Shown: positions 34,620-53,149 of the stretch, in pieces | Numbering within the stretch: position 1 is the first letter of the stretch | Layout: the number at the start of each line of letters is the position of its first letter | Virus record (IMG/VR): IMGVR_UViG_3300002835_000011 | Source of the DNA: an uncultured virus (IMG/VR IMGVR_UViG_3300002835_000011) | Lineage: Duplodnaviria > Heunggongvirae > Uroviricota > Caudoviricetes | DNA length: 64,000 nucleotides | Direction: 5' to 3' (one strand) | Notes under the pieces: model-generated | The model's database searches: none | Told to the model about the DNA's origin: nothing | Seen by the model: only the letters and a program-made list of their open reading frames with translations | Program-made: the position numbers and the translations under genes

Positions 34620-34684
34620 TTTTATTTGTGTTTATTGGTTTACATTGCTAAAGTAGAATATTCTACTTAATTAAAAAAAGGATT

Positions 34685-35002: not shown

Positions 35003-35094
35003 AATGCTAATATAGAAAATTCTACATAAAGAAAAAAATGATTTCAAAAAAAAGCCTGGGCGTTTTACCCAGGCTTGTTGAGTCGTCTGACCCC

Positions 35095-36160: not shown

Positions 36161-36218
36161 ATCCTAAATGTAGATAATTCTATTTAATTAAAAAAATGAT
36201 TTAATTATATCAATACAT

Positions 36219-36503: not shown

Positions 36504-36560
36504 CTTTTTTTATTTGGTTACTTAGCTAATATAGAAAATTCTATTTAATTAAAAAATGAT

Positions 36561-36785: not shown

Positions 36786-37015
36786 TTTTTCAGTTTTTCG
36801 TATTCTTCCTCGGTAATTTGTATTGCTGTACACCATCGTTGCTCCCATTCAGCGATCTCTTCTTCAATGATATAGTCGATTACATTCTGGTCCATCTCAT
36901 CTTCCTCACGGACATCTTCTATGTCCTCCCGATAAATGGTGTGCTCCTCGTACTTTATTCCTTCTGGTAAGTACTCCTTCGGACCTGTGATCCTCAAATA
37001 AAATTTCATATACAT
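36782..37015 (-). CDS. small acidic protein
   Basis: ORF track; ITEEEY motif. Confidence 0.75.
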   Translation of the reverse strand: MYMKFYLRITGPKEYLPEGIKYEEHTIYREDIEDVREEDEMDQNVIDYIIEEEIAEWEQRWCTAIQITEEEYEKLKK

Positions 37016-37026
37016 CTTGATTTAAT

Positions 37027-37317
37027 TTATTCTGCGCTTAAACCCCATGGCTCTACATCCATGATATTAGTCTCGTCCAGTTCCAAACACTCACATATAA
37101 ACTCCGCAAGTCTCTTGTTACCAGGTTGCCCTTCCGAGATCTCTCCCGTACCAATAGCTTCAACTACATCTCTCGGCGTCATACCAAGAACTCTCGAACA
37201 AAACTTTACGTCCTGCCCAAGATAAAAACTCTTAGTGTGCTCGGGAGTCTTAACTAGTAAGCTCCAGTTCCTTCCGAAGCCATAAGGGTTAGGTGTTATG
37301 ATTATTGATGTTTCCAT
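37027..37317 (-). CDS. hypothetical phage protein (F.LGQD.KF..RVLG)
   Basis: ORF track. Confidence 0.8.
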   Translation of the reverse strand: METSIIITPNPYGFGRNWSLLVKTPEHTKSFYLGQDVKFCSRVLGMTPRDVVEAIGTGEISEGQPGNKRLAEFICECLELDETNIMDVEPWGLSAE

Positions 37318-37320
37318 ATA

Positions 37321-37572
37321 CTATTGATAAAATTGAATTTCGTCCTCTATAAAAAATCTTTCTAAAATTAATACGCTTCTCAGATTGTGGAATTGTACAA
37401 AATCATCAATGTCGTGAACATCCCATCCGTCATCCTCTCCTATTTCAGAAAAGAGCTTTAATGACCTACTAATAATATCGCCATATGACTCAGGAGACCA
37501 TTTATTCCCTAAACACTCTACGACTTTTAAAAGTCCTACATCGTCGCTATCGTTTTTTATCTGAAATATCAT
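37321..37572 (-). CDS. hypothetical protein
   Basis: ORF track. Confidence 0.7.
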   Translation of the reverse strand: MIFQIKNDSDDVGLLKVVECLGNKWSPESYGDIISRSLKLFSEIGEDDGWDVHDIDDFVQFHNLRSVLILERFFIEDEIQFYQ

Positions 37573-37629
37573 ATCTTATTATTTGTTAATGCTAATATAG
37601 AAAATTCTATTTAATTAAAAAAATGATTC

Positions 37630-38370
37630 CTATTCTTTTATTAAAACTCCTAATAGCGAAGCTCCCATAAGAGTCTCGCTGGAGAACTCACCCAGCTTTT
37701 TTAAATCGGAAGCCTTTATCTGGTCTTTAACCATTCCTAAAGCTATGAGATAAGGAACTTTCTTTTCCGCCATAGTGAAGTGTATTAAATCTAGTACCTT
37801 ACTCGATACACCTCTATTACCGTAATATGAGATATGATGTTCCTTAATTCCGTGATAACTATGTCCTAAAATAACCGGAGCTCCTTCTAAGCTTATTATT
37901 TCATTTCTTCGGCAAAAAAATTCCTGAATTTTAATTGTATCACTGATAGGCATCAAATCCTTTAACTTGTTATCCGAGCAATCTATTTTATACCCGTAAG
38001 ATGATTCAAGGGTAGGTAAACCCTTTAAACTTACGAGCTGATTTTTCGAGCATTTATAATCTCCCCACCAAACTCTATCTGGTCCACCCTCCAAAGTCGT
38101 TAATTTATTATTTGAGCAATCAAAGGACTTTACTACGTATCTTGGAGCTCCTTCAAGACTTGTGAGCTCGTTATTAGAGCAGTAGAAATGTCCATCTATC
38201 TTTCCAAATTTAACGCCCTTAAAATCTTTTAGTCCCTGATCTGCGCAATTGAAATCACCCCATACATCTACACGATCATTCTCCTCATCATATTTCCAAC
38301 CTCCTTGCGGAGCAATACCCCGGTTGAGGAACTCTATCATTTCCGATTGTTCTTTGCTAAATAGTGGCAT
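37630..38370 (-). CDS. LRR-like protein with CS.N.LTSLEGAP repeats
   Basis: about 6 repeats of 22-24 aa; C-terminal GASLLG. Confidence 0.85.
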   Translation of the reverse strand: MPLFSKEQSEMIEFLNRGIAPQGGWKYDEENDRVDVWGDFNCADQGLKDFKGVKFGKIDGHFYCSNNELTSLEGAPRYVVKSFDCSNNKLTTLEGGPDRVWWGDYKCSKNQLVSLKGLPTLESSYGYKIDCSDNKLKDLMPISDTIKIQEFFCRRNEIISLEGAPVILGHSYHGIKEHHISYYGNRGVSSKVLDLIHFTMAEKKVPYLIALGMVKDQIKASDLKKLGEFSSETLMGASLLGVLIKE

Positions 38371-38555
38371 AATTCTTTTTTAATTGGTTACAGCACAAAT
38401 GTAGAAAATTCTACATAAAATAAAAAATGATTTGCCAAGAAAACTTTTTAGCATCCTCCCTGGGGTTCCTCAGAGAAAACAGCATATGCTACGGTTGAAA
38501 ACACCACAAAAAAAGCCGAGCTTATGCTCGGCTTCCTAAGGGTTGTTAAACGTTA

Positions 38556-38975
38556 TTACCCTTTATTATGAATTTCTCTTATTTGACCTACCTCGTCTAA
38601 GATAGAGTCTAGGGTGTGGTTGCTTTTGTTTTTTATCTTCTCTTCGATCTTTGCTCTTCTCGCCTCAAGGATGTTGAACACTCTCGATCTGAATTTGCGT
38701 CTCTCCTTATCAGTATACGGGATGTCATATTGGAACTTACCGTTGATGACTTGAAGATCGAGATGATCTAAGATTAGGTATATGTCGTCAACCTCTATGT
38801 ATATAGTATCGCTAAGGGGTGAAAGAAAAATCTCGGCATCTTTGACGCTGACCATTCTTTCAAATATACGGATACCTTTCTTTTGCTCTTCGGTTAGCTC
38901 TTCTCTCGTCTTGAAGATCCTTCCCATAAATCGAGATGTTTTGAGCCAAGCAATTTTGATCTTTCTTCTATTCAT
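38556..38975 (-). CDS. hypothetical protein
   Basis: ORF track; start MNRRK. Confidence 0.75.
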   Translation of the reverse strand: MNRRKIKIAWLKTSRFMGRIFKTREELTEEQKKGIRIFERMVSVKDAEIFLSPLSDTIYIEVDDIYLILDHLDLQVINGKFQYDIPYTDKERRKFRSRVFNILEARRAKIEEKIKNKSNHTLDSILDEVGQIREIHNKG

Positions 38976-38985
38976 GTTATTGGTT

Positions 38986-39237
38986 TTACGATAGCAAATT
39001 AACTTTTGAAACAACAGCAGAAATCGAACGCCACTCTTGAATGTCCAAATCAAAATAAGCCGTACCCGCATGAGCTAAAGTGCCTCCGCTAGGCTTCCAC
39101 TCTTCTGGTATCATGTCGGTATTCGTAGTACCTCTAACCTCTCTAACACTTCCGTCCAACTTCTCATAAGAGAATTTAACCTCGCCTTTTAATAGCTTTT
39201 CTTCAAGTCTTTTTCTAGATATCTTTCTCTTAGCCAT
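38986..39237 (-). CDS. SH3-fold / WYL_2 (DUF2693)-like protein
   Basis: F.Y.K.DGS.R...GT...YFDLD..EWRS. Confidence 0.8.
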   Translation of the reverse strand: MAKRKISRKRLEEKLLKGEVKFSYEKLDGSVREVRGTTNTDMIPEEWKPSGGTLAHAGTAYFDLDIQEWRSISAVVSKVNLLS

Positions 39238-39364
39238 ATTATTTATAGCCTTTTTTGTGCTGTTTGTTCCATACAAACATAGATAGATTTTTCTAATCAA
39301 AAAAATGATTCCACAAAAAAAGCCCAAGATCACTCTTGGGCCTCGATGAGGAACAAAGCAGGAA

Positions 39365-40204
39365 TTACTCATCGAAAATAATATTATACGGATTGTCTTT
39401 ACTTAGTATTTGTTTCGCCATGTCTTCCACTTCGGAATGACTAAATTTGACTTCCGATTCGTATCGGACATCCCCAGTAGACGAAAGGTCGTAATAGAGT
39501 TTCACATTAACATTACCTCTCCGATTCTTTGTGAACATCGCATATCTTTTTCCGTCTGGAGTAAAGCGAAGCTCCAACATCCCGGTCGTATTATGCTTGA
39601 GCTTGTTCGATCCGACAAACACACCCTCTTTAGTTACTTGTTGGATACACAAGAACGAAGTGTAAACGCCTCTGGTGTTGCTTCCCGAGTTGTGCTTTCG
39701 CATAAGATCTATCAACCATTTCTCGGTGGAGTTCGAAGTCATTTTAGTGGCTTCTTTAACCGTGTCCTGTACTTCGACAAAAGAATCTATAAGTACCACG
39801 TCATATCCGCGATCTAGCATTTCCTCTATAATGTCCTTCGGATTGCTATCGACATATTCACCTAAGAAAAGGATGTCGAGATTACCAAACTTCGGATACC
39901 TCTTAACATAGCCGTACAAATCCACTCGGTCCATTTCACCAGATATAAAAAGCACCGATGCGCCATTGTTCTTAAGATCGGATAGGATATCCATCGACAC
40001 CGTACTCTTACCGACACCAGGATCTCCGACCAACATAAAATTGGTGGATCTCGGGAATCCACCATCGGCACTTAATAAATCATCGATTAATTTCCCAGTC
40101 TTCATCGTCTCGAAGAGAGTAGGATCGAAAGTAAGATCACTCATTCGGACACTCTTAGGTGTCACCCTCTCTTCTTCTCCCCTTCCTTTTTCTATAGCAC
40201 CCAT
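39365..40204 (-). CDS. RecA-superfamily ATPase, RadA/Sms- or KaiC-like
   Basis: GDPGVGKST, LFISGEM, VLIDS, VTKEG...G...LKH, KNRRG. Confidence 0.85.
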   Translation of the reverse strand: MGAIEKGRGEEERVTPKSVRMSDLTFDPTLFETMKTGKLIDDLLSADGGFPRSTNFMLVGDPGVGKSTVSMDILSDLKNNGASVLFISGEMDRVDLYGYVKRYPKFGNLDILFLGEYVDSNPKDIIEEMLDRGYDVVLIDSFVEVQDTVKEATKMTSNSTEKWLIDLMRKHNSGSNTRGVYTSFLCIQQVTKEGVFVGSNKLKHNTTGMLELRFTPDGKRYAMFTKNRRGNVNVKLYYDLSSTGDVRYESEVKFSHSEVEDMAKQILSKDNPYNIIFDE

Positions 40205-40254
40205 TAATTAGATTTTCCTAAATATAGCTAATAAACCTCGTCTAAAAAAACGAT

Positions 40255-41133
40255 TTACTCGCTTTCATCATTACAAGCTATCGCATCACGTATCTGCTTA
40301 GCCATCTCGTAATTCTCATCCTCAACCGCTAACTTCTCCATCACGTTCAGTACCACTCTCGGGAAATCCTGAACGACTCCTTTTCGGTAAGCGACTGAAA
40401 TATATTTCTTCTCGTATTCTTCAAGCTCCTCTTCGCTCTCTGCTTCGATATCGTACATACGGTCAATGAAGTAATCCTCGTACCCTGTAATATCAGCGGC
40501 CATTTCATAAGCCTCTTCGGAACCATCCTCTGGGATGTTCTCGTCTATCACATCGCCGTTCTTCAAAGAATACTCTCCGACATTATGACCAAAATCCTCA
40601 TCGGCGAATCTCACATGAAATGTCGCATCCGGATACTTGGCGCTTAAAGCAACCATTACTGGATACGGATTACTCCACGCGGTCTGAAAGTAAATACCAT
40701 CGCCGTCATTCTCATTGGTGTCGTACGCATTCCATTTGGTACCCCAATTTGCGATACTCCAACTGTACCAATCCATGTGACCGTAATCCCTAATGTTATC
40801 CAAAGCTTTCTGCGCCTCTTCCAAATTAGCCGATCCCTTCTCCAACATGTGATCGACTAAATCATCCGGCGTGGCGAACTCCTGTGCCCAAGCGTATTCC
40901 ATGATCTGTCGGATCTCACTATCGTCACCAGCACGGTACTTTAAAATAGCAAGCCCGTTACTCGTACTACTCCCACTCGTGATATCCAAAGAATCTGGCC
41001 GAGGAATAATCTTATTGAAATCGATATGTCTGATATCACCCTCCTCGTCGACAGAAATAATATCACCCTTAATCTTTGCGACCAATTCAGGATCACCCTC
41101 GATGGTCAAAATGTTTGAAATGTGATTTGGCAT
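40255..41133 (-). CDS. DUF1281/YubB ferredoxin-like protein with C-terminal UVR motif
   Basis: MPNH..N, WY.W...NWGTKWNA, F.TAWS; AVEDENYEMAKQIRD. Confidence 0.85.
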   Translation of the reverse strand: MPNHISNILTIEGDPELVAKIKGDIISVDEEGDIRHIDFNKIIPRPDSLDITSGSSTSNGLAILKYRAGDDSEIRQIMEYAWAQEFATPDDLVDHMLEKGSANLEEAQKALDNIRDYGHMDWYSWSIANWGTKWNAYDTNENDGDGIYFQTAWSNPYPVMVALSAKYPDATFHVRFADEDFGHNVGEYSLKNGDVIDENIPEDGSEEAYEMAADITGYEDYFIDRMYDIEAESEEELEEYEKKYISVAYRKGVVQDFPRVVLNVMEKLAVEDENYEMAKQIRDAIACNDESE

Positions 41134-41184
41134 TTTTATTGGTTTTTACAAATGTAGAAATTTCTATTGAATTAAAAAAATGAT

Positions 41185-41715
41185 TTAGGAAGCTTTTGGG
41201 TCGTACTTAGATAATATCTTAAGCACACGGTCACGGTGTGAGCTCTCGTATAAAGAAAGGAAAGTCACCCACTGTGCAAACTCTACCTTTTCGACAAAAT
41301 CTAATTCGGGTGATTTCATCGGAGTAAACGCTCCTAGCGACATCTTAAGCTCTCGGAGGGATTTATTAGATATCTGGAGCAGCATAAATCCGTTAACACT
41401 TAAGCCCTCGGTTAGCTTCTCAAAGTTAACTGAGGAGCGTCCCTGTGCTTCTTTAACATCCGCTGTGATAAATTCTCCGGATCCGAGTGTGCCACCCATT
41501 TGTTGAAAAATCTTATTGTGGGCTCGGCTCATCTCTCCATAAACACTTTCGAGCTCACCTCTCATATGTTCAAAACGTGCATTGCTTTTCTCGAGCACGT
41601 CCATCATAATATTAAGCATGCGTCCCATGCGCTGGCTAACGTCGTTACCGTCGTAAAGCTCCTTGGCTATTTCACGGGATCTCTCCAACATCCCGGATTT
41701 TAACGATTCATTCAT
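41185..41715 (-). CDS. hypothetical protein
   Basis: ORF track; start MNESLK after promoter. Confidence 0.75.
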   Translation of the reverse strand: MNESLKSGMLERSREIAKELYDGNDVSQRMGRMLNIMMDVLEKSNARFEHMRGELESVYGEMSRAHNKIFQQMGGTLGSGEFITADVKEAQGRSSVNFEKLTEGLSVNGFMLLQISNKSLRELKMSLGAFTPMKSPELDFVEKVEFAQWVTFLSLYESSHRDRVLKILSKYDPKAS

Positions 41716-42068
41716 ATTCTTTAATTTGTGTAAAGATAGAAATTTCCATACAAATAAAAAAATGATTTCCAAAAAAATCCATTCCGTTGTCGGACTATTA
41801 TCTCCCTGGGGTTCCCCTGGGTACGAATCGCGGATTGGTGTCCGAAGAGTGTCCGATTCGTATTCCGATCGGGATTCCGCTTGGATTTTCTGGGATTTTT
41901 GTGGATGTCCGAATTTCTGCGCACAACAAAAAACCGAGTCCTTTCGGGACTCGGTCTTATGATAACCAATTAAAACCTAAATAATATGTGCAAAACAAAG
42001 AATTGTTTGACATCGCAAATATACGGTATGTAATCGGAATTAAAAAACAATTATCGGATAAATAACAT

Positions 42069-42518
42069 ATGAAACGCATTAAATCATTTGATTCCGTATC
42101 GGAATCCGTATCGGACTCGGATATATTCCGAACAAAGGTCTCCACCTACCGCAGGCAAAATCCCACTATGATAGAATTCTATAAAGAACCAAAGGAACTC
42201 TATATGGCAAACGTTGTGGACGGTGAAGCTGAATGGACGATAGATATCCAGGCAAGACGCTGGGGTATCGAAATAGGACCACAAGAAGCTAGACTAAAAT
42301 CCCTACGTCTTGAACTAGAGATAGACGACGAGGAGACAGGGGAAACACACGAAGACACCCTCGAACTCTCAGAGGATGACTTTAATCCAGAAAGATATGA
42401 GACTGAGATCAATCAGTTCCCTCTGGAGCTTGACACTATAGAGATCACAATGAACAACTCATTGAACCCTAAGGACTGGAATATCAAACTCGTGTTAGGA
42501 AAAATATCCGACTATTAG
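42069..42518 (+). CDS. acidic protein with head-protein-type leader; only plus-strand gene in the early array
   Basis: MKRIKSFDSVSES; GATAAATA upstream. Confidence 0.75.
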   Translation: MKRIKSFDSVSESVSDSDIFRTKVSTYRRQNPTMIEFYKEPKELYMANVVDGEAEWTIDIQARRWGIEIGPQEARLKSLRLELEIDDEETGETHEDTLELSEDDFNPERYETEINQFPLELDTIEITMNNSLNPKDWNIKLVLGKISDY

Positions 42519-42634
42519 AAAAATCCACCTCTCGCACGTGCATACCCGCAAGGGGTCCCAATTGGGGCTCCCCACAAAAAAGACCAGCCTAAGAGACCGG
42601 TCTTCTTTTTTTATAATCCCGAGGGGTATTGGGA

Positions 42635-43318
42635 TTAGTTGCTCATTTTAACTTCCATACCTTTATCGGTTACAGAGACTGTGATGTTGACACCATATTC
42701 TCTAACGACCTTAGCAAGTTCTGAAAGTTCGATATTTTGTTGCACTCCCATTCTGGTTGGTTCTTCAGTAGGGGTTGGCTTTGCAGCAAGCACATCTTCG
42801 ATAACTGCTTCCACCTCTGCACCTTCGTAAGGAGCCTCCATTTTTTTACGGATTCTCTTAATCCCAGTAGGCACGATGAAGCGTGTGTCCTCGTTGATAA
42901 AGCCGTTGTCAGTAAGATAGTTCTTACGACAGTAGATAGCAACTGAGGTTCTTCCTAGAAGTTCAACGGTCTCCTTAACAGTCATCTTGCTAAGTACCGC
43001 GTCTCTTAGTAGTTCATCCTCCGTCATTGACCATCTCTTATTAGAGCGGTTAAGTAGCTCAGAAGCTTTAGAAGTTCTAGGCTTACGATTCGGCTTCATC
43101 GGAGGAGCAGAGAAAACAATAGCATTGGTCTCCTCCTTAGTCACTCGATTCTCCTTTCTCAAATGAGTACCTCTCTTACGAACCTTGCTCCCTAACCATT
43201 GGCGAAGACTCTCTGGATTAACCCCGTTCTCCATCGCCGCTTGTCTTAAAGTTTTACCGTCTGCTACGTAAGACTTCATAGCAGCTACCTTTACATTTTT
43301 TGGAATCATTTTTCCCAT
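42635..43318 (-). CDS. DNA-binding protein with HTH and Myb/SANT-like domains
   Basis: TLRQAAMENGVNPESLRQW; RWSMTEDELL...LGRT..AI..R. Confidence 0.75.
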   Translation of the reverse strand: MGKMIPKNVKVAAMKSYVADGKTLRQAAMENGVNPESLRQWLGSKVRKRGTHLRKENRVTKEETNAIVFSAPPMKPNRKPRTSKASELLNRSNKRWSMTEDELLRDAVLSKMTVKETVELLGRTSVAIYCRKNYLTDNGFINEDTRFIVPTGIKRIRKKMEAPYEGAEVEAVIEDVLAAKPTPTEEPTRMGVQQNIELSELAKVVREYGVNITVSVTDKGMEVKMSN

Positions 43319-43337
43319 ATTATTTGATTTTAATTGT

Positions 43338-43724
43338 TTATAAATCCTCAACAAAAAACATAGCCATCGTAATGCGCTTACCATTACTTCGGGCTATACC
43401 TCTGGCAACACTCGCCATCTCTTTAGCTTTATCTCTCGGGCTCTTATCTGAATCCGCAGGGAGTACCTCAGAAGAAACTTTAACCTCGATCTTCTTACCC
43501 TCCTTAGTCTTCATCTTCACCTTCTTCTCCTTCACCTTCTTAGTAGTAGCCAATCCCATCGAACTCTTCTGATATAACACAGCCGCCGGGGTTCGCCCAA
43601 GAGCATCGGCTATCTCCTTGGTGGTCTTACCCTCCTTGAGCATCACCTTCAATTGCTTGCGATCATTCTTCGTCCATTGATAGTTATGATTGCCCGGAGA
43701 TTCTTTCTGTCTTTTAATAATCAT
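43338..43724 (-). CDS. Myb/HTH-like DNA-binding protein
   Basis: WT......L......GKTTKEIADALGRTPAAV. Confidence 0.75.
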   Translation of the reverse strand: MIIKRQKESPGNHNYQWTKNDRKQLKVMLKEGKTTKEIADALGRTPAAVLYQKSSMGLATTKKVKEKKVKMKTKEGKKIEVKVSSEVLPADSDKSPRDKAKEMASVARGIARSNGKRITMAMFFVEDL

Positions 43725-43799
43725 ATCTTTTTCTGTTTTTAACTTTTTTAATTTAATGCAAATTTAGCGGATCATTTCAGAACAAAAAAACGATTTCTT

Positions 43800-44730
43800 G
43801 AATTTCCTAATCCTTCTATCATAATTATAACAAAAGTTTATCCTAAAGTAAATCCCCCGCATCAAACTTTTTCTACTTAGAATCTCGGGGAACCTCCTGG
43901 TGCACCCGGGATTGCCCCGAACGCACACGCATACACGGGGGTTTCCAAGAGATTCCAAGAAATTCCCCAGGGATCCATTCAAGGATACCCAAGATATCTA
44001 AGAAAATCCCAGAAATCGCCCGCATACATCCGCGTGGGGACCCCCTGGGGGCCTTCCGAGGCGCACGTAGAAAGTGGGTTTAACCTTGCACACTTTGTGG
44101 TATATTCTACGGGACTTTCCCACGGGATGGACACGGGATCTATTGGGGATGTTTTAAGGGGATTATACTATGTGGGTTTTGTATGCCTTAGGTCTATCTA
44201 TATAGTATGCGTATACGGGTATGCGCGGGGTCTTCTATACGTCCCCTTTCTATGTTATAGGGATATGGGTATTGTATACTATAGGGGTAGGTGTCTATAC
44301 ATGTATGGGTGGATGCTTATATACTGTGATTACGTGTGTATCTTTATTTATTGATGTGTTTTTAATAGTTTGGAATATTGTTATGGGTATAGTGTATAGT
44401 ATAGGGGTAGGTACTAGTACATGTATAGGTGGATGTCTATGTGGTATAACATGTATGTGTATATGAGTGGTAATAGTGATGATAAGAGCGGGGGCGTGTT
44501 TGGGGGTTTTTCGTGTTTTGTCCCCCCCCATTTTTAGGGTAGAAAATTCTCGTTAAAAGGGTAGAAAAATCGGGGGGCAAATGGGGAAAATTCTATTCCT
44601 CGCTTTTTGGTGTGGTAGCTTAAGGTAATCGGGGCGAGCTGAGTAAAATGATGAAATGAGGCGAGAAACCGGGGCGAAACGGGGCAAGTTTATATGTGCC
44701 TGCCTCGGGGTAATGAGGCAATGCGAATAG
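43800..44730. other. about 0.9 kb non-coding divergence point; candidate replication origin or genome-end region
   Basis: genes diverge; + strand switches from C/A-rich to G/T-rich near 44.04 kb; direct repeats. Confidence 0.5.
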
Positions 44731-44744
44731 AGATATATAGTGTA

Positions 44745-45134
44745 ATGACACAGAAAGAATTTATCAAGGTATTAGACAAGAAAGGTTACTCCTACGAGAT
44801 TGAAGGAGATCGGATAGTTGTTACCCATGAAGGGGATGTTGATTTGGGATCACTGAAGAGTTTACCCTCTGGAGTTAATTTCAGGAATATAGGGTATGTC
44901 GATTTGGAATCACTAGAGAGTTTACATCCCAACTTGGAGTTTAGAAATGAAGGAGATGTCTTTTTGAAGTCGATAACGAGTATACCTCGTGGAGTTGTTT
45001 TTAGAAATGTATGGGGTGATGTCTTTCTATCAATAATAGAAGATTGGTTTAGCGATTGGGAAGGTAATATGGAAGGTATAGATAGCAAAAGATTACTGAA
45101 CTCGATGATAAATAAAGGAGTATTTGAAAGATGA
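44745..45134 (+). CDS. LRR-like array gene 1
   Basis: MTQKEFI N-cap, 20-aa repeats, LLN.MI.KGVFER C-cap; GATATATAG upstream. Confidence 0.85.
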   Translation: MTQKEFIKVLDKKGYSYEIEGDRIVVTHEGDVDLGSLKSLPSGVNFRNIGYVDLESLESLHPNLEFRNEGDVFLKSITSIPRGVVFRNVWGDVFLSIIEDWFSDWEGNMEGIDSKRLLNSMINKGVFER

Positions 45135-45760
45135 CTAGAGAAGCTTTTATAGAGGTATTAAAGAGGCAAGAATACCCCTACGAGATTCTAGGGAACAAGG
45201 TGGTTGTTACTTATAGAGGGAATCTCTATTTGGTGTCTCTTACTAGTATTCCTCCTAATGTGGTGTTTAGAAATACAGGGAATGTCGAATTGTATCGTCT
45301 CACTTCTCTTCCTCCTGGTGTGGAGTTTAGTAATGGAGGTGGTGTCTTTTTTAGTGATCTCACTTCTCTTCCTTCTGGTGTGGAGTTTAGAAATGGAGAG
45401 GGTGTCAGTTTGAATTCTCTCACTTCTCTTCCTCCTGGTGTGGTGTTCGAGAATGGAAGGGATGTCAGTTTGAGTTCTCTCACTTCTCTTCCTCCTGGTG
45501 TGGTGTTTAGAAATAGAGGGTATGTCAATTTGGGATCACTCACTTCTCTTCCTCCTGGTGTGGAGTTTAGAAATGGTGGTAATGTCTTTTTGGATTCTCT
45601 CACTTCTCTTCCTACTGGTGTGGTGTTTAAGAACGGAGGAGATATCAGATTAAAATCACTAACAGGTGGATATTTTACTAATTGGAAAGGTAATATAGAA
45701 GGCATAGACGAAAAGAGATTATTGAACAAGATGATTAAAGACGGAGTATTTGAAAGATGA
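45131..45760 (+). CDS. LRR-like array gene 2 (7 repeats)
   Basis: LTSLPPGVEFRNGG.V.L.S repeats. Confidence 0.9.
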   Translation: MTREAFIEVLKRQEYPYEILGNKVVVTYRGNLYLVSLTSIPPNVVFRNTGNVELYRLTSLPPGVEFSNGGGVFFSDLTSLPSGVEFRNGEGVSLNSLTSLPPGVVFENGRDVSLSSLTSLPPGVVFRNRGYVNLGSLTSLPPGVEFRNGGNVFLDSLTSLPTGVVFKNGGDIRLKSLTGGYFTNWKGNIEGIDEKRLLNKMIKDGVFER

Positions 45761-46152
45761 CACAGAAAGAATTTATCAGTATATTAGACAAGATAGAATA
45801 CTACCCCTACGAGATTCTAGGGAACAAGGTGGTTGTTACTCATGATAGGGATGTCGATTTGTTGAATGATCTTACTTCTCTTCCTCCTGATGTGGAGTTT
45901 AGAAATGAAGGTCATGTCTATTTGAGTAATCTCACTTCTCTTTCTCCTGGTGTTGTGTTTAAGAATGTAGGGTATGTCGATTTGGGGTCTCTCACTTCTC
46001 TTCCTCCTGGTGTGGTGTTCAATAATAGTGGGAGCGTCTATTTGGGATCTTTAATAGGTGGATATTTTGATGAAGAGGAAGAAGATATAGAAGGGATAGA
46101 TCCAAAGAGGCTATTGAATCTGATGATTAAACAAGGAGTATTTGAAAGATGA
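45757..46152 (+). CDS. LRR-like array gene 3
   Basis: same architecture, ATGA overlap. Confidence 0.9.
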   Translation: MTQKEFISILDKIEYYPYEILGNKVVVTHDRDVDLLNDLTSLPPDVEFRNEGHVYLSNLTSLSPGVVFKNVGYVDLGSLTSLPPGVVFNNSGSVYLGSLIGGYFDEEEEDIEGIDPKRLLNLMIKQGVFER

Positions 46153-46547
46153 CACAAGAAGAGTTTATCAAGGTATTAAAAGATGATAGAATTTACTACA
46201 AAATAGATGGTGATAATATTATAGTTACCAAGGGAGATGAACATGGGATATCTTTGAATATTCTAAAGAGTTTACCTCCTAATGTACATTTTAAGAATCC
46301 TGGTACGGTCGATTTAACTAGGGTGGAAACTATTCCACCTGGTACAGTGTTTAGTAATAGTGGGAATGTCAATTTGGCAGGGGTCCAAAGCATACCACGT
46401 AATAATGTGGAGTTCCGAAATGGAGGGTATATCTGGTTAATGTCTCTCATGACACTTAACACTGAAGAATTTGAAGGTAATATACCAGGTATAAATAATA
46501 AGAGATTACTGAACCTTATGATAAATAAAGGACTATTTGAAAGATGA
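46149..46547 (+). CDS. LRR-like array gene 4 (divergent)
   Basis: same caps. Confidence 0.85.
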   Translation: MTQEEFIKVLKDDRIYYKIDGDNIIVTKGDEHGISLNILKSLPPNVHFKNPGTVDLTRVETIPPGTVFSNSGNVNLAGVQSIPRNNVEFRNGGYIWLMSLMTLNTEEFEGNIPGINNKRLLNLMINKGLFER

Positions 46548-47056
46548 CACAATCACAAGAAAAATTTATAAAGAAATTAAAGAGAGAAGATTACTCCTAC
46601 GGGATAGAAGGAGATAAGGTGGTTGTTACTGATAGAAGGAGTGTCTCTATAAAATCACCTACTTCTCTTCCTCCTGGTGTGGTGTTTAAGAACAAAAGTT
46701 ATGTCGATTTGGAATCACTCACTTCTCTTCCCCCTGGTGTGGAATTTAAGAATGGAGGGAATGTCTATTTGAATTCTCTCACTTCTCTTCCTCCTGATGT
46801 TGAGTTTAAGAATGTAGGATATGTCTATTTGCAATCTCTCACTTCTCTTCCCCCTGGTGTGGAGTTTAGTAATGATGGGAATGTCAATTTGGGATCACTC
46901 ACTTCTATTTCTCCTGGTGTGGAGTTTAGAAATGGAGGTGATGTCTTTTTGGATTCTCTAATAGATGGATGGTTTAGTGAATGGGATGGTAATATAGAAG
47001 GGGTAGATAGTAATGGATTACTCAACCTTATGATTAAACAAGGGATGTTTATATGA
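46544..47056 (+). CDS. LRR-like array gene 5 (5 repeats)
   Basis: same architecture. Confidence 0.9.
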   Translation: MTQSQEKFIKKLKREDYSYGIEGDKVVVTDRRSVSIKSPTSLPPGVVFKNKSYVDLESLTSLPPGVEFKNGGNVYLNSLTSLPPDVEFKNVGYVYLQSLTSLPPGVEFSNDGNVNLGSLTSISPGVEFRNGGDVFLDSLIDGWFSEWDGNIEGVDSNGLLNLMIKQGMFI

Positions 47057-47499
47057 CTAGAGAAGAATTTATAGAGTATCTAGAAGAGCGTAAATACAAT
47101 TATAAGCTTACTGGTGATAAGATAGAGGTATTAGGTGTAGATAGAATAATATTAAGAAATGTACTTGACCTGCAGGGGGTAGATTATATTCCTAGTGGGG
47201 TGGTTTTTTCTAATAAAGGCGGAGTTAAAATGCTCGATCTTAGGGATGTACCAGCAGGAACAGAATTCAATAATAATGGACCAATATATCTAGGTAGATC
47301 TAGGGACGGCGGTATTAAGATCGATCCATCTGTTATCTTTAATAATCGATCAACTATTAATATTGGATATAGTGGACAAAGTGATAAATTTGCTATATCG
47401 ACTAAAGAGGATTATTTCACAGAAAGCGATATTGATATAGATAGAATAGATAAGAACATGCTATTTAAGCTAATGGTTAAGCAAGGGGTTTTTAAATAA
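47053..47499 (+). CDS. LRR-like array gene 6 (most divergent)
   Basis: MTREEFI...LMVKQGVFK. Confidence 0.85.
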   Translation: MTREEFIEYLEERKYNYKLTGDKIEVLGVDRIILRNVLDLQGVDYIPSGVVFSNKGGVKMLDLRDVPAGTEFNNNGPIYLGRSRDGGIKIDPSVIFNNRSTINIGYSGQSDKFAISTKEDYFTESDIDIDRIDKNMLFKLMVKQGVFK

Positions 47500-47541
47500 A
47501 TCATTTTTTACCACCAAAATAAATCACTAGATTTGCACAAG

Positions 47542-48297
47542 ATGAAGCATTTAAAAAATCAATTTAGAAGAACTATCCAATTGTACTCTCAATATAATAG
47601 TATTAGTGAGTCTGTTGAAAAGGAGGGGAGTATGCAGATCGATGGAATGGATATGGGAAACATAATTCCTGTGGACGTTACTGAATATGATTCAAGATGG
47701 GGAGATACCACACCTCATATGTGTTTTCTTTTCGGTGACGAGCGATTTAAGAACCGAATCATATTAATCCCTGGCCTTATCACATTTAAGACGTTTAAGG
47801 AGGCCGAAAGTGCCATTAAAACATATGCTAATTATCCTAAGGGTGATGTTCCTTTTACTAACGAGTGGAGACTTCCAGATTTAGAGGAGATGGAGAACAT
47901 ATACGATTTCTATGCTCAGGGAGGAATGGGAGATTACACAGAAATGCTGGATTTGTTTGGAGCGCTAGATTATGGCACTTCAGAGATAGAAGAGATAGCT
48001 GGATACAAACCAATCAAGGATAAAATATATTCATTGAATTTTAGAACCGGTAAGGTGAGGGCTAACTTCGAACATGAAGAAAAGCTTATAATCCTTATTA
48101 AAGAAGTATCTGACGAGGAGATATACAATATGGTAAACGATATCTACAAGAGAGTGCCTATTGTTCAATCCACATACATAATAGAGAGAGCTCAGAAAAT
48201 GTATCCCTCTATAGATTTTAGTAAGATCACAAACACTAAAGACTCCGACGATTTATTTAGAGGAGCAAACACCCTAAGAAAATTCGGATTTAATTAA
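47542..48297 (+). CDS. protein with Lcl/DUF1566-like segment and C-terminal GANTLRKFGF tag
   Basis: WRLPDLEE... Confidence 0.75.
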   Translation: MKHLKNQFRRTIQLYSQYNSISESVEKEGSMQIDGMDMGNIIPVDVTEYDSRWGDTTPHMCFLFGDERFKNRIILIPGLITFKTFKEAESAIKTYANYPKGDVPFTNEWRLPDLEEMENIYDFYAQGGMGDYTEMLDLFGALDYGTSEIEEIAGYKPIKDKIYSLNFRTGKVRANFEHEEKLIILIKEVSDEEIYNMVNDIYKRVPIVQSTYIIERAQKMYPSIDFSKITNTKDSDDLFRGANTLRKFGFN

Positions 48298-48384
48298 AAG
48301 TCCACGTTAATTGTTTCATTTTTTAAGAAAACGATTTTTTCTATGGATTTATTTCTCTACCTTTGCTCTGTAATTAAAAAAAAT

Positions 48385-49062
48385 ATGGGAAAATCACCAA
48401 AGGCAACAAGACTCATTTTCGGATTAGATGCACTTCTATTATCTAAGCAATTGGACTTTGTAAATGACGAGGATCCAAGGAATCAAAGAGCATCGGATCT
48501 TATAAAGAGAGCATCTATACTTTATATCCAGGGAGGCAGAAAATACGAGGATCTTATAAACGATGTGGGGGATAACGCTTTCGGAGAATACCAGGAATGG
48601 TACAAGAAAAACATTTTCGATGTGGTCAAAAATAGTCCAGAGCACTTAAGTCCAGATCGTGAAAATGTACCCTTCCCTAAGTACGATGTTAAAAAATACG
48701 AATTCGATAAATATTTCGATGGACTAAATAAGGAGGTCTTTGAGGAGCTACAAAAGATGGTAATGTTTCTATTCGATCCAAGATCCGAGGAAATACTAGA
48801 AAGAGAAAGCTCTGACGAGGATGAGGACTTTGTTAATCACACGAGACACTTCTCTGTTTTAGGACATAGCATATTAATAGCAACCCTCGAGGGTAAAGAA
48901 TTCTTAGATCGATTGGAAAAAATAATCCACAGATATGATGTAGGTAAAGAATTCGAAGAGGCTATAATGGGAGCAGCAGAAGGAAGAAGAAAAAATAAGG
49001 TCAATGAATCTATAACTGAAATAGCTTCAGATCTATTAAAAATGAAGCCATCTTATAACTAA
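48385..49062 (+). CDS. hypothetical protein
   Basis: ORF track; TAccTTTG promoter; terminator near 49107-49128. Confidence 0.8.
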   Translation: MGKSPKATRLIFGLDALLLSKQLDFVNDEDPRNQRASDLIKRASILYIQGGRKYEDLINDVGDNAFGEYQEWYKKNIFDVVKNSPEHLSPDRENVPFPKYDVKKYEFDKYFDGLNKEVFEELQKMVMFLFDPRSEEILERESSDEDEDFVNHTRHFSVLGHSILIATLEGKEFLDRLEKIIHRYDVGKEFEEAIMGAAEGRRKNKVNESITEIASDLLKMKPSYN

Positions 49063-49168
49063 AATATTGTCTCCGGACATGGGTGAGAAGCCCGATTTAC
49101 AGCTAGAGCCCCTTTTAGGGGCTTTTTTATTGGAATTTTTTTCCGAATTTTCTCTATAATAGGGATAG

Positions 49169-49729
49169 ATGGAGGGAAATATATCCGATATTTTAAATCA
49201 CTGTAATAAGTGGCACTCTCTAGGGGTTAAAACCTACATCTGTAAGGTGGAAAAGGTGTTCGGAATAAGGAAACTTTATAAAGATTCGATAGAATTTTCT
49301 CCAGAATTTATCGAATTTCCTGAAAAAATTCCCACTGGATACAATTTTTTAGGAGTCTCTTTGAGAGAATCTGGTCTTATGTGTCTAGACATAGAGGGAA
49401 CTCCTGGATCTTTGAGCGATTTTTTGGCCATCTTAGATGAAAAATCTATAAAAATTGATGATTTTTTAGTGGAAACAACACTCAATAGCGGGATCCACAT
49501 GTATTTTAAAGCACCACCAAAGAAGGTTAATAGGAATGTGTATGCTATTAAATATAATAGGATAAATTTTGATATACTTTTTAATGGTAAGTCGTTCTCA
49601 GTTCCCTCTGAGTATGGAGGTAAATCATATAAATTCATCAACAAATCCATATTTGACATTAACTCTCTGGAAGATATACAAGAATTCCCTGCTTCTTTAA
49701 ATTTTCTATTAAAAATTAGAGATAGATAG
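49169..49729 (+). CDS. standalone Prim-Pol (bifunctional DNA primase/polymerase N-terminal)-like domain
   Basis: N.LGV......MCLDIE; VETT.NSG.H.YF; S.PS. Confidence 0.7.
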   Translation: MEGNISDILNHCNKWHSLGVKTYICKVEKVFGIRKLYKDSIEFSPEFIEFPEKIPTGYNFLGVSLRESGLMCLDIEGTPGSLSDFLAILDEKSIKIDDFLVETTLNSGIHMYFKAPPKKVNRNVYAIKYNRINFDILFNGKSFSVPSEYGGKSYKFINKSIFDINSLEDIQEFPASLNFLLKIRDR

Positions 49730-49746
49730 ATCATACAATTAAAAAT

Positions 49747-50430
49747 ATGGAATTAAAGAAATTTATACTTATCCCGGATGGACATTATGGATATCCGGAA
49801 TCTGTTCAAGGAGATACTCCCCGTAGTCATTCGGAATTAGTAAAAATGTATAGAGAAGCTGGATATTCTGGATACAATATGGGTGACGGAGATTCAGAAG
49901 AGCCAGATTCAGACGATTATGAAACTGAAGAGGAATATCAAGCGGCAATGAAAGAATGGAATGAGGAGAACAATTCCAACGCAGAATGGATTTTCAATGA
50001 TTACGGAAACTTTGATGTTTTCCATAATGCCTATAGTATGTTGTGTGATCCTTCAGTGAAGCCAGATGATATTCTTGAAAGCATTTTCGATTACGATAGC
50101 ACTTCGTGTCATGAGGATTTTATGATCGAGGCTTCTAAACAGGAGGGTGTTGCTTATATTATGTCTTCAGGATATGATGATGACATTGCAATAAGTGGCG
50201 AGATATTTGGGACTAGCGAATCCGATGGGGAAGCTCCAAAAATTATATCTGATGTAATAGTAAGAGAATACAAAGAGAAAAATCCGCAGATCGGAATTAT
50301 ATACTCGGATGTGTTAAAAGAAATGCCAGAAATAGAGGATATCATATCATCTATACTTTCACCAGAGGATATGGCGAACCTTAAAAATTTAGGATCTGGA
50401 GGATCGCTACTAAGAACATTCGGATTTTAA
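49747..50430 (+). CDS. acidic protein with C-terminal GGSLLRTFGF tag
   Basis: ORF track. Confidence 0.8.
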   Translation: MELKKFILIPDGHYGYPESVQGDTPRSHSELVKMYREAGYSGYNMGDGDSEEPDSDDYETEEEYQAAMKEWNEENNSNAEWIFNDYGNFDVFHNAYSMLCDPSVKPDDILESIFDYDSTSCHEDFMIEASKQEGVAYIMSSGYDDDIAISGEIFGTSESDGEAPKIISDVIVREYKEKNPQIGIIYSDVLKEMPEIEDIISSILSPEDMANLKNLGSGGSLLRTFGF

Positions 50431-51411: not shown

Positions 51412-51762
51412 ATGAAAACATACAAACTGGGTATAATCGAAATCATGGCTAACGATCTATCAATTAATATTGGTGGTCAAAATAGTTTCGGTAGATTAAC
51501 ATTCACAGAAAGCGAAGCAATAGCAGAAAGCCTTGGTAAGGGATGGAGAATACCATCCATAGAGGAACTAGAATTTATCCAGCAATACTATGATCTAGAC
51601 GTTTTAAATCTTTCAAAGGAGGCGTATTGGACTATAGATAGAGAAATAAATGACGAGCCCACAAGTGAATCATGGGCAATTGGGTATTATTTCTCATTTA
51701 AAAAGAAGGGAGGAATACCCAAATCTGAAAGAATAAAAGCAAGATTAGTCCGTTCCATATAA
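51412..51762 (+). CDS. DUF1566/Lcl-like protein
   Basis: GWRIPSIEEL...YWT...ARLVR; related to 2973-3332. Confidence 0.7.
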   Translation: MKTYKLGIIEIMANDLSINIGGQNSFGRLTFTESEAIAESLGKGWRIPSIEELEFIQQYYDLDVLNLSKEAYWTIDREINDEPTSESWAIGYYFSFKKKGGIPKSERIKARLVRSI

Positions 51763-52727: not shown

Positions 52728-53149
52728 GGGCCCGTTTTTGGATTTGACAGGCGGAGGTAGTTCTTTGAAGTGATGCAGGCAGGGTTAGATTGGAAATCCT
52801 TAATTACCTATCAAACAATAAACGCAAACGTTTACAACACCGAGGATATCATGAGTATCCCAACTTCTCTTACTCGCGTAGCGGTAGCAGAAGAGGCTGA
52901 GTTGCTAATGGCAGCTTAACCGGCGGGCCGCACCGGCCTAGGAACAGAAAGGTGATGGTGGAGTCAGGTCTTACCTTAAAGACCGAAACGGAAATTCGGC
53001 TCATACCGAAGAGTACACAGACTGAGCATTAAGTTTGTAATAAAAGAAATGCAAAAAAGTTTGTCCGTGTCGAACAACGGACTAAGCCTGTGAATGAGTT
53101 TCTTGAGCATTCGATCTGGACGAGGGTTCGACTCCCTCCGGGTCCACCA
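52728..53149 (+). ncRNA. ssrA: tmRNA
   Basis: acceptor GGGCCCG/CGGGTCC-A-CCA with G3.U pair; GGATTTGAC; T-arm GAGGG-TTCGACT-CCCTC; tag ORF 52824-52919 after ATAAAC, ending in MAA-stop. Confidence 0.95.

Follow-up and report, generated by a model that had tools for sequence, protein, structure and literature searches.

A translationally coupled array of six repeat-protein genes with hypervariable positions in an uncultured freshwater phage

We analysed 64,000 nucleotides from the genome of a large uncultured tailed phage of lake water (hereafter the window, meaning that whole stretch) and found a run of six genes for small repeat proteins in which a constant 20-residue scaffold carries a few hypervariable positions. 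The array is probably an inherited repertoire of binders whose evolution proceeds through duplication, exchange and diversifying selection. The family to which it belongs is without functional annotation in any library that we searched.

Organization of the array and its repeat units

The array spans positions 44745–47499 of the + strand, where six open reading frames of the window lie back to back (Table 1). All five junctions between them are ATGA overlaps, and the six genes are one translationally coupled operon. The design of the first junction, with AAGGAG ahead of the overlap, is repeated at 45743–45760, 46135–46152 and 46530–46547. The proteins share an N-cap, MT(Q/R)xEFI, and a C-cap, GNIEGIDxKRLLNxMIKxGVFER, which ends in FI in g5 and in FK in g6. 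Between the caps, 20-residue units stay in register along each protein, with three to seven units per gene; g6 has about three degenerate units that the unit pattern missed, and its best match is a similarly placed gene of the related phage L002 (10465–10908, 44%). At the DNA level TRF found a tandem period of 60 nt in 6.9, ~3 and 5.0 copies with 78–80% matches. The preliminary description, made from the letters of the sequence, had reported six ATGA-linked genes with common caps and 20-residue repeats, as well as an N-cap stretch of 39 nt identical between g2 and g3, and all of this was borne out.

Table 1. Coordinates and properties of the array genes and associated sequence features.
Feature	Position	Strand	Properties
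Promoter-like block	44074–44110	+	TTTAAC, 16 nt, TGnTATATT; ~640 nt upstream of g1; once in window
g1	44745–45134 (alternative starts 44694/44721)	+	129 aa; 3 units, extra residue in third; HMM of A1 E 1.3e-54
g2	45131–45760	+	209 aa; 7 units at 45239–45658; HMM E 1.9e-105; SspH2 LRR region E 5.6e-7
g3	45757–46152	+	131 aa; 3 units at 45871–46050; AlphaFold pLDDT 83.3, pTM 0.76; 753 relatives
g4	46149–46547	+	132 aa; 2 regular units and 1 with extra residue; divergent codons; HMM E 2.1e-59
g5	46544–47056	+	170 aa; 5 units at 46658–46957; AlphaFold pLDDT 87.2, pTM 0.81
g6	47053–47499	+	148 aa; degenerate terminal member; HMM E 6.9e-24
39-nt N-cap stretch	45173–45211 (g2)	+	Identical to 45802–45840 (g3)
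Coupling junction, example	45117–45134	+	AAGGAG within the final C-cap codons (K-G-V-F-E-R), 11 nt ahead of the next ATG; then ATGA overlap

The encoded proteins are small and free of cysteine, have no obvious signal peptide, and are presumably cytoplasmic. The start codon of g1 is ambiguous among the three positions listed, and two relatives (P0006 and P0046) reach further upstream. We dismissed antisense open reading frames over the arrays, such as 45226–45729 on the – strand, as side effects of the stop-free repeat unit; the relatives and the confident fold belong to the sense frame.

The consensus unit is LTSLPPGVxFxNxGxVxLxS. Among the 20 units of the window, entropy reached 2.5–3.3 bits at positions 13, 15, 17 and 19 and 1.5–1.9 bits at positions 9 and 11, and stayed at or below 1.3 bits elsewhere. 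The same profile emerged from 455 family units drawn from 120 proteins. Positions 15, 17 and 19 had entropies of 3.27, 3.22 and 3.37 bits and position 13 one of 2.62 bits; positions 9, 11, 14 and 20 were intermediate at 1.4–2.0 bits, and the eleven most constant positions did not exceed 0.85 bits. The prevailing residues at the variable positions of these family units are D, N, Y, W, R, G and S, and W, E, K and Q are all present at positions 17 and 19. Positions 13, 15, 17 and 19 are in alternation with V16 and L18, which are buried, and should therefore form a single exposed variable stripe in the modelled proteins; the assignment to one face rests on this alternation and on DSSP strings rather than on a mapped surface. 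For the window units, pN was 0.54–0.56 at the hypervariable codons, compared with a scaffold pS of 0.20–0.34 and a scaffold pN of 0.10–0.18, a comparison between paralogous repeats in which gene conversion of the scaffold could lower pS and which is hence no proof of positive selection.

A 1-kb divergent non-coding region precedes the array, which is the first operon beyond it, and genes for a PrimPol and a DnaB-like helicase adjoin the array. The promoter-like block in that upstream region is, judged by its sequence, a candidate promoter of the array operon. The larger block at 43988–44110 shares 78–88% identity with the related phages L004, L010 and L009, compared with just 57–59% for the flanking proteins. 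A scan of sigma-70 promoters and terminators did not rise above shuffled sequence (18 vs 15.9 and 3 vs 3.4, respectively).

Predicted fold and distribution of the family

AlphaFold modelled g3 and g5 as confident β-solenoids, each coil having short strands at V8-x-F10 and V16-x-L18. As predicted, the helix would be straight and right-handed, and in both models the C-cap has low confidence (pLDDT ~48–71). The label "LRR-like" in the preliminary description has partial support in profile similarity and none in the canonical LRR signature. The A1 profile matched YopM with an E-value of 1.1e-13 in five stretches, the single-repeat stretches being individually weak (i-Evalues 0.02–0.8), and SspH1 with an E-value of 1e-5; its matches to repebody and VLR sequences were weak (E 8e-5 to 0.02). 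A model of the SspH2 LRR region matched g2 only (E 5.6e-7). None of the six proteins matched a Pfam LRR model at E ≤ 1, and the LxxLxLxxN spacing is absent from the consensus unit even when it is read circularly: V-x-F-x precedes the invariant Asn, and x-S-L comes after the V-x-L strand.

Fold searches did not single out LRRs either. VIA-align ranked straight β-helices level with or above LRRs for the g5 model, its rows including the EtpA β-helix (Z 9.4), the CAP C-terminal domain (8.5), Qnr (7.4, rmsd 3.3), the BT_1240 LRR (7.2), bactofilin (7.1) and Slit2 (6.8). For neither the g3 nor the g5 model did Foldseek find a PDB entry at E ≤ 1e-3, and its weak rows were mostly LRRs. The BFVD search returned a single family member, which comes from an uncultured Caudovirales phage and is uncharacterised (E 1.2e-3, TM 0.65), and otherwise nothing informative. 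By hhalign, the family showed no relation to the other LRR-like protein of the window (37630–38370).

The search for relatives at E ≤ 1e-3 yielded 753 proteins, none with a functional name. The family comprises 1186 cluster representatives (50%-identity clusters) found only in viral and metagenome data, and its Atlas clusters are labelled "Viruses 100%". An alignment-based scan of 185,579 species genomes found no relatives, and neither did single-protein scans of viral contigs and genome contigs. INPHARED phages gave no match by tblastn with g2 or by megablast with positions 30000–50000. Apart from sub-threshold rows and the SspH2 row of g2, the six proteins had no family match in Pfam (E ≤ 1), PHROGs (E ≤ 0.01), PADLOC (E ≤ 0.1) or NCBIfam. 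A literature search of limited coverage turned up no description of the family, and a word search of papers on freshwater jumbo phages and on polyvalent proteins gave no mention of one.

Syntenic, ATGA-coupled arrays occur in related phages, with about 10 genes in L002, five in L004, five in L010 and about 5 to 12 overall, and repeat counts in single genes range from 2 to 12 across relatives. A gene of L003 contains three consecutive identical units, and two L002 genes have a two-unit block in common. In longer relatives the module is embedded in multidomain proteins with matches to Acid_PPase (E 1.9e-7) and NUMOD; a weak match to an Acb1/2H-phosphoesterase (E 9e-4) lies below the Pfam cut-off.

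Population stability and codon usage of the scaffold

A hypervariable repeat array might be reshuffled or mutagenised within phage populations, whether by a DGR, by unequal recombination at the 25-nt scaffolds or by cassette conversion. At the consensus level this proposal is largely refuted, and we regard it as extremely unlikely. An independent assembly, L012, differs by nine SNPs over 8390 nt, all of them in the flanks, with no SNP and no indel in the 2755-nt array; because this second assembly carries the identical array without gaps, the repeats are no assembly artefact. Contigs from four runs of four lake studies (2016, 2020, 2023 and 2025) had no differences over 45988–48000 or in any g2 fragment, a comparison made at the level of consensus, where contigs hide rare variants and short-read contigs break in g2. 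At least 88% of 31-mers were present in 20 of the 23 listed runs. Invariance of the array across populations had been named beforehand as an outcome that would speak against ongoing diversification, and at the consensus level it is what we observed. In the X11 run, one contig joins 45298 to 45539 and so omits exactly four units (240 nt), a point in favour of reshuffling; however, 32 nt are common to both sides of this joint, at least the assembler word length, and it may be a graph artefact. Repeat-number polymorphism amounts to none in L012 and one ambiguous skip in X11, while differences from lineage to lineage are clear.

The DNA of the units does have features that would suit active diversification. 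Scaffold stretches of 25–32 nt are identical between units, and the third base is T at position 15 in 18 of the 20 window units and at position 17 in 17 of 20 (background 0.34). The preliminary description had seen NNT in many variable codons and compared it with DGR output while allowing that codon bias would also fit; the observation stands for these two positions, whereas codons are mostly NNA at position 13 and mixed at position 19. A DGR is not supported. A reverse transcriptase (RVT_1, PF00078) was found in none of the 78 (11 + 67) open reading frames of the window, beyond which the genome extends for ~115 kb (longest contig 179 kb), and in none of five related viral records that are 19–85% complete. 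As for a template repeat, no copy of the 25-nt scaffold lies outside g2, g3 and g5 at up to three mismatches, and the window holds no further HMM copy. The invariant Asn12 is encoded by AAT, which speaks against a DGR, since a DGR would scramble AAT; the W, E, K and Q residues at positions 17 and 19 are impossible for NNY codons. No DGR is needed for a DGR-like codon pattern here, since the NAT codons for D, N, Y and H all lie one base change apart, and we consider this a negative result of some value.

Codon usage in the scaffold agrees with copying over evolutionary time. The 25-nt scaffold CTCACTTCTCTTCCTCCTGGTGTGG occurs 14 times at up to three mismatches, all within g2, g3 and g5, with none expected from 100 shuffles. 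The claim that the scaffold is nearly invariant even at synonymous sites is therefore correct for these three genes and incorrect for g1, g4 and g6, whose scaffolds are written in other codons. Units are more alike within than between genomes, as in concerted evolution: the fraction of scaffold codons that are the same was 0.72 within genomes vs 0.52 between them, and the nearest scaffold neighbour came from the unit's own genome for 62.4 of 113 units vs 15.9 with shuffled labels (maximum 26.1). The 25-nt scaffold is a pyrimidine-rich tract in rare codons (CTC, GTG), and genomes in which the synonymous sites of the flanking genes have been largely randomised still keep the interleaved GTC (V16) and TTG (L18). 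It is possible, if unlikely, that the nucleotide scaffold is itself selected as a homology tract for exchange of units or cassettes between paralogs and co-infecting phages. The array would then be an inherited, recombination-ready binder library in a bacterial virus, operating on the time scale of lineage divergence and not within a bloom.

Proposed function and comparison with known systems

In the inherited-repertoire model that we favour, each protein would be a capped β-solenoid of 20-residue coils, in each of which the scaffold residues are buried and three to four hypervariable residues (13, 15, 17, 19) are exposed around the V-x-L strand. Successive coils would stack these hypervariable residues into one stripe comparable with the variable face of LRR binders. 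Through its stripe each paralog would bind a different ligand, most probably a host-cell protein, and expression would be early. The repertoire would be inherited, not made during infection. It would evolve by duplication of units and of whole cassettes, the last codons of each cassette carrying the ribosome-binding site of the next gene, and also by exchange between paralogs and diversifying selection at the exposed positions. The preliminary description had proposed a recombination-diversified binder repertoire: a solenoid with a hypervariable stripe fits binders of differing specificity, and units and blocks have been copied over evolutionary time, so what has to be given up is the ongoing diversification. 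Its further suggestion that the binders are directed at host defence proteins is conceivable.

The C-cap may do more than close the solenoid. One could imagine, though we think it improbable, that the variable solenoid picks targets while the strongly conserved C-terminal segment (W..W.GNIEGID.KRLLN.MIK.GVFER) anchors every paralog to the same partner, e.g., a host protease or a phage enzyme. The arrangement would resemble that of F-box/LRR or IpaH LRR-NEL proteins; in SspH/IpaH, the closest sequence relatives, the LRR is the substrate receptor of an E3 ligase. The C-cap motif persists in the most divergent members (g6 and genes of L009, L010 and L003), its low-confidence model would suit a segment that folds on a partner, and the longer relatives are fused to enzyme-like domains. 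However, part of its conservation is explained by the Shine-Dalgarno sequence and ATGA junction inside it, caps are needed anyway to seal the solenoid core, and our analysis yielded no partner candidates.

The fold rows raise two further possibilities. β-Solenoids occur widely in adhesins and tailspikes (EtpA, FHA and CBA120 TSP3 are among the g5 rows) and receptor-binding proteins typically have variable surfaces, which would suit proteins that decorate the virion or fibre and bind cell-surface or environmental ligands. We consider such a role quite unlikely, since the proteins are small, lack an obvious signal peptide or anchor domain, match no PHROG structural family, and are encoded among replication and regulatory genes (HTH proteins, PrimPol, DnaB-like) rather than in the structural module. 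Very unlikely, in our judgement, is a nucleic-acid mimic that inhibits a DNA enzyme, like the pentapeptide-repeat proteins Qnr and MfpA. The straight right-handed helix that is predicted, the Qnr row and the acidity of g1, g3 and g5 (pI 4.4–4.8) agree with it, but g2 has a pI of 8.9 and g4 of 6.1, 350 of the 455 family units have K or R at position 11, and a hypervariable surface suggests many ligands, not one conserved DNA-binding enzyme.

If the inherited-repertoire model is true, large freshwater phages possess a family of small intracellular binders that is private to them and evolves fast, with specificity set by three or four positions per 20-residue coil. A repeat-binder repertoire would then be added to the means by which phages are known to take over hosts or counter their defences and would offer a natural experiment on how a binder library evolves without somatic machinery. 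A small cysteine-free scaffold with naturally marked tolerant positions may also interest engineers of repebody-like binders.

Among known systems, the short 20-residue class of bacterial LRRs (YopM, SspH1/2, IpaH) shares the 20-residue period and the L..LP.(L)PP..(L/V) motif, and supplied the YopM, SspH1 and SspH2 profile matches given above. These effectors are cytoplasmic protein binders without disulfides, as the phage proteins presumably are too. The phage unit differs in reading VxFxNxGxVxLxSL without LxxLxLxxN, in leaving the Pfam LRR models silent, and in a predicted shape that matches straight β-helices equally well; the phage proteins also have other caps, no NEL or effector domain, and tandem gene arrays. 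Large eukaryotic viruses, too, carry expanded families of repeat binders: the ankyrin/PRANC proteins of poxviruses and the LRR families of entomopoxviruses and mimivirus turn over fast and are thought to be host-range or host-interaction factors. Those involve other repeat types and other hosts, and the BFVD rows for proteins of this sort were not significant (E ≥ 0.09).

Fungal NLR repeats with high internal conservation (WD, ANK, TPR; Podospora het-d/het-e) resemble the array in being more alike within a genome than between genomes. Unlike them, the phage repeats are of another type, have an internal identity of 78–80% at the nucleotide level, below the 85% amino acid criterion used there, stand alone without NOD fusion, and showed no clear repeat-number polymorphism in the population. 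DGR targets likewise place hypervariable codons with a fixed third base inside an invariant frame, whereas for the phage array no reverse transcriptase or template repeat was found in the searches above, an invariant AAT codon is present, and the array is stable in the population. The VLRs of lampreys and hagfish and the engineered repebodies share with the phage proteins a capped solenoid and diversity at alternate strand positions of near-identical modules, and VLR A29 appeared among the fold rows (Z 4.4, 28% identity). VLR diversity arises by somatic assembly, through copying from flanking cassettes. Each of the phage genes, in contrast, is inherited in complete form and is stable within the population.

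Architecture of the coupled array

All five junctions between g1 and g6 read ATGA, each stop overlapping the next start, as the preliminary description of this array had stated. The N-cap MT(Q/R)xEFI, followed by Y.YEI.G.K.VVT, is present in all six proteins, and g1–g5 terminate in the C-cap W..W.GNIEGID.KRLLN.MIK.GVFER or a near variant. The claim of shared caps therefore stands except at the end of g6, where the C-cap is reduced to its D.IDKNMLFKLMVKQGVFK part. The region between the caps is made up of 20-residue units (consensus LTSLPPGVxFxNxGxVxLxS), which Tandem Repeats Finder recovers at period 60 (6.9, about 3 and 5.0 copies; 78–80% matches). The final C-cap codons, AAA GGA GTA TTT GAA AGA TGA, place AAGGAG 11 nt ahead of the next ATG. 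Each cassette thus supplies its successor's ribosome-binding site, so tandem duplication preserves coupling.

Coordinates of the array genes and of other features of the window
Feature	Coordinates	Strand	Basis	Description
g1	44745-45134	+	ORF call	3 units, one extra residue in the third
g2	45131-45760	+	ORF call	7 units
g3	45757-46152	+	ORF call	3 units
g4	46149-46547	+	ORF call	2 regular units plus one with an extra residue
g5	46544-47056	+	ORF call	5 units
g6	47053-47499	+	ORF call	About 3 degenerate units, missed by the unit pattern used
Promoter-like block	44074-44110	+		TTTAAC, 16 nt, TGnTATATT; within a conserved non-coding stretch
Direct repeat	44270-44320 and 44390-44440			51 nt, 80% identity, 120-nt spacing
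tmRNA	52728-53149	+	ARAGORN and Rfam RF00023 agree	97.6 bits, full length; ARAGORN tag peptide unusually long, ends LMAA
Sigma-70 family factor	16484-17329	-
CobT/VWA and ATPase genes	30208-34619	-		Two paralogous CobT/VWA-like proteins and a MoxR/CobS-like AAA_5 ATPase, consecutive
Second LRR-type protein	37630-38370	-		22-aa units, FxCSNNxLTSLEG
ORF	29429-30025	-		31% to the same L004 gene as the second LRR-type protein
Lcl_C-like small proteins	2973-3332; 51412-51762; 47533-48297	-; +; +	Sub-threshold Lcl_C matches	DUF1566-like; one immediately downstream of the array

The N-cap stretch reported as identical in g2 and g3 was found at 45173-45211 and 45802-45840 (39 nt). At ≤3 mismatches, the 25-nt scaffold CTCACTTCTCTTCCTCCTGGTGTGG has 14 copies, with 0 expected from shuffles, and every copy lies within g2, g3 or g5. 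Near-invariance at synonymous sites, claimed for the whole array, therefore applies to those three genes; g1, g4 and g6 have the same scaffold residues in different codons. Long antisense ORFs cross the array (45226-45729, 46196-46552 and 44792-45088, all on the minus strand) and appear "conserved" in relatives. We rejected them as genes: the best explanation is that the repeat unit happens to lack stop codons in an antisense frame.

The repeats could have been an assembly artefact, but an independent 91-kb JGI metagenome contig (L012) argues against this. It matches 41760-50149 at 99.89%, with 9 mismatches and no gaps, and all nine mismatches fall outside the array, at 43165-43686 and 49900-49992. 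The seven g2 units and every variable codon are thus the same in two assemblies that differ elsewhere.

Variation within the unit is concentrated where the preliminary description had placed it. Among 20 window units, entropy was 2.5–3.3 bits at positions 13, 15, 17 and 19, 1.5–1.9 bits at positions 9 and 11, and ≤1.3 bits elsewhere. Across 455 units from 120 family proteins, it was 3.27, 3.22 and 3.37 bits at positions 15, 17 and 19 and 2.62 bits at position 13; positions 9, 11, 14 and 20 had 1.4–2.0 bits and the remaining eleven ≤0.85. Residues at the variable positions of these 455 units are mostly D, N, Y, W, R, G, S and H. Because V16 and L18, the buried residues of a predicted strand, fall between positions 15, 17 and 19, these three should point outward; from this alternation and the DSSP strings, they should stack across coils into one stripe. 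In 19 window units (two units with an extra residue were left out), between-unit pN at the four hypervariable codons was 0.54–0.56, compared with scaffold values of 0.10–0.18 for pN and 0.20–0.34 for pS. This pattern is compatible with diversifying selection but is not proof of it, since the comparison is among paralogous units, between which conversion may occur.

Copying of modules and stability of the array

Relatives of the array are present at 11 IMG/VR loci, three of which (L002, L004 and L010) have the gene order of the window: on one side, on the minus strand, a DnaB-like helicase, a DUF1281_C-domain protein and two HTH proteins, then a non-coding region of 1.0–1.9 kb, the array, PrimPol and further common genes. 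Their flanking proteins have identities of 75%, 59% and 57%, respectively, to those of the window. The relatives' arrays are also ATGA-coupled and vary in size (about 10 genes in L002, 5 each in L004 and L010, about a dozen in L003), and one gene of another locus, L009, has 12 units. Three consecutive units of an L003 gene are identical, and two adjacent L002 genes have a two-unit block in common. Scaffold codons bear genome-specific signatures: L1 is CTC in the window and TTA in L002, and locus L005 uses AGC/AGT, CTG, CCA and GTC. Where the residue was the same, so was the codon in 72% of pairs from one genome and 52% of pairs from different genomes, and 62.4 of 113 units had their nearest scaffold neighbor in their own genome, versus 15.9 with shuffled labels (maximum 26.1). 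Identical units, common blocks and this codon likeness bear out the proposed module copying and indicate that unit and cassette duplication shape the arrays over evolutionary time. Conversion probably does so too.

Scaffold codons are rare in the genome (CTC 0.09, GTG 0.14, GTC 0.11 and TTG 0.12 of their synonymous sets), and the caps are written in the common codons TTA and ATA. Counting the three commonest codons per locus in the window and ten loci, GTC encodes V16 in 83 of 100 listed units and TTG encodes L18 in 76 of 96, both interleaved with hypervariable codons. Between the window and L002/L004, 0.82 (V16) and 0.80 (L18) of unit pairs have the same codon, versus 0.44 and 0.38 for conserved V and L of flanking orthologs. 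There was no such excess between the window and L010 (0.36 vs. 0.32 in flanking orthologs). This retention may mean either that the modules share a more recent ancestor or that selection acts directly at the nucleotide level.

The proposal of a recombination-diversified repertoire was not supported as an ongoing process. In 20 of the 23 runs listed (lake-water and freshwater metagenomes from 20 studies, 2016–2025, two flagged as a possible source), 88–99% of sampled 31-mers of 44000-48000 were present. Contigs of X19 (2016), X11 (2020), X3 (2023) and X16 (2025) had no differences across 45988-48000 and all g2 fragments. L012 and these contigs therefore give no sign of ongoing diversification at the consensus level; contigs hide rare variants, so minor forms may exist. 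Only X16 had a variant strain, with 11 substitutions and 2 single-base indels in 44063-44969; the two substitutions in g1 both fall in unit 2, one synonymous in V16 and one K-to-N at position 19. One X11 contig (depth 5.7) joins 45298 to 45539, skipping 240 nt, exactly four g2 units. The joint may belong to a genuine allele with three units or may be an artefact of the k-mer graph: its two sides have 32 nt in common, from which a de Bruijn graph could create it.

The many NNT codons had been likened to the output of a diversity-generating retroelement (DGR), and the bias is real: T occupies the third base in 95 of 113 position-15 codons and in 86 of 113 position-17 codons, whereas its background frequency is 0.34. 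However, it has a simpler cause, since D, N, Y and H all have NAT codons, one first-base change apart. The invariant Asn12 is AAT in 18 of 20 window units, which a DGR would scramble; positions 17 and 19 of family units include W, E, K and Q. A search of the 64-kb window found neither a reverse transcriptase (none among its 78 ORFs, in a genome of at least 179 kb) nor a template repeat, and no scaffold copies outside the array genes. Five related viral records (19–85% complete) also had no reverse transcriptase families.

Genomic context and possible function

The array is the first operon after a divergent control region and adjoins replication genes. Non-coding sequence at 43988-44110, in which the promoter-like block comes after an inverted GC-rich stretch, is 78–88% identical to L004, L010 and L009, exceeding the conservation of neighboring proteins. 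The 1-kb region between the divergent gene blocks also has the direct repeat, shorter repeats, G-runs and a GC skew sign change; the repeat-bearing stretch could be an origin or a set of regulatory iterons. Elsewhere, a palindromic motif, (T/A)GTAGAAnnTTCTAC, has 19 copies at ≤3 mismatches versus 2.0 expected (e.g., 15848, 21023, 23624, 33522, 34652 and 38400), most just upstream of minus-strand genes, and may be a phage promoter or operator.

A word-indexed search found 753 relatives of g3 at E ≤ 1e-3, all from metagenomes and typically 148–149 aa long. None had a functional name ("hypothetical protein" where the source named any), and four units were found by the unit pattern in 88 of 120 proteins among the matches listed. 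A full HMM search with our 29-sequence family alignment gave 1186 cluster representatives at E ≤ 1e-3 and 250 at E ≤ 1e-30. ESM Atlas clusters of g5 are labelled "Viruses 100%", and the one BFVD member is an uncharacterised protein of an uncultured Caudovirales phage. An alignment-based scan of 185,579 prokaryotic species, one genome each, found no relatives; Pfam, PHROGs and PADLOC have no model for the family, and we found no description of it within the literature searched. We rate it as an undescribed family of phage LRR-like binders organised as coupled cassette arrays.

The array proteins have no cysteine and no obvious signal peptide. Together with the operon position, the promoter-like block, the viral-only family and fast copy-number turnover between related phages, this fits a set of binding proteins that work inside the cell and are produced early during infection. 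Of the best 150 HMM hits, 21 exceed 300 aa, and several of these embed the module and N-cap in multidomain proteins: one has an Acid_PPase domain (E 1.9e-7), one a weak, below-cut-off Acb1/2H-phosphoesterase match (E 9e-4) with two HxT/S motifs read by eye, and others NUMOD or DUF6166. These fusions hint that the module serves for targeting next to enzymes. As for what the array proteins bind, host defence proteins would be a reasonable but purely conjectural candidate. In P0123, P0162, P0165, P0230 and P0153, which are long multidomain relatives from metagenomes, a recurring K-L-(S/D)-W motif lies between modules, among them the LRR-like one with its N-cap. The motif may be a sign of linkers between domains or of sites where polyprotein-like or polyvalent proteins are processed.

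Fold and relation to leucine-rich repeats

AlphaFold predicted confident solenoids for g3 (pLDDT 83.3, pTM 0.76) and g5 (pLDDT 87.2, pTM 0.81), each with an N-terminal helix and hairpin, short strands at V8-x-F10 and V16-x-L18 per coil, and a low-confidence C-terminal segment. The label "LRR-like" is supported by profile similarity: against PDB sequences, the family profile matched YopM (E 1.1e-13, five stretches), SspH1 (1e-5), repebodies and VLRs (8e-5 to 0.02) and IpaH (about 0.1), and g2 alone matched the LRR part of the NCBIfam SspH2 model (5.6e-7). On the other side, no Pfam LRR model matches the g1–g6 proteins, and direct reading of the units shows no canonical LxxLxLxxN spacing. Foldseek returned nothing at E ≤ 1e-3 for either model. 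Structure matches of g5 with good rmsd were unspecific: EtpA beta-helix (Z 9.4), CAP C-terminal domain (8.5), a flagellar-motor chain (8.2), Qnr (7.4), BT_1240 LRR (7.2) and bactofilin (7.1). We therefore call the fold an LRR-like beta-solenoid, not a canonical LRR family. The second LRR-type protein of the window (sub-threshold LRR_4, an internalin J row and a phrog_7816 match) showed no relation to the array family by hhalign.

By profile comparison, the nearest sequence relatives appear to be 20-residue bacterial LRRs, namely the substrate-binding LRRs of YopM, SspH and IpaH. VLRs follow the same logic of diversity on a constant module, but they assemble somatically. The nearest evolutionary analogue of the array is found in fungal NLRs, whose repeats are highly alike within a protein and undergo concerted evolution together with positive selection on a small number of surface positions (PMC4986451).
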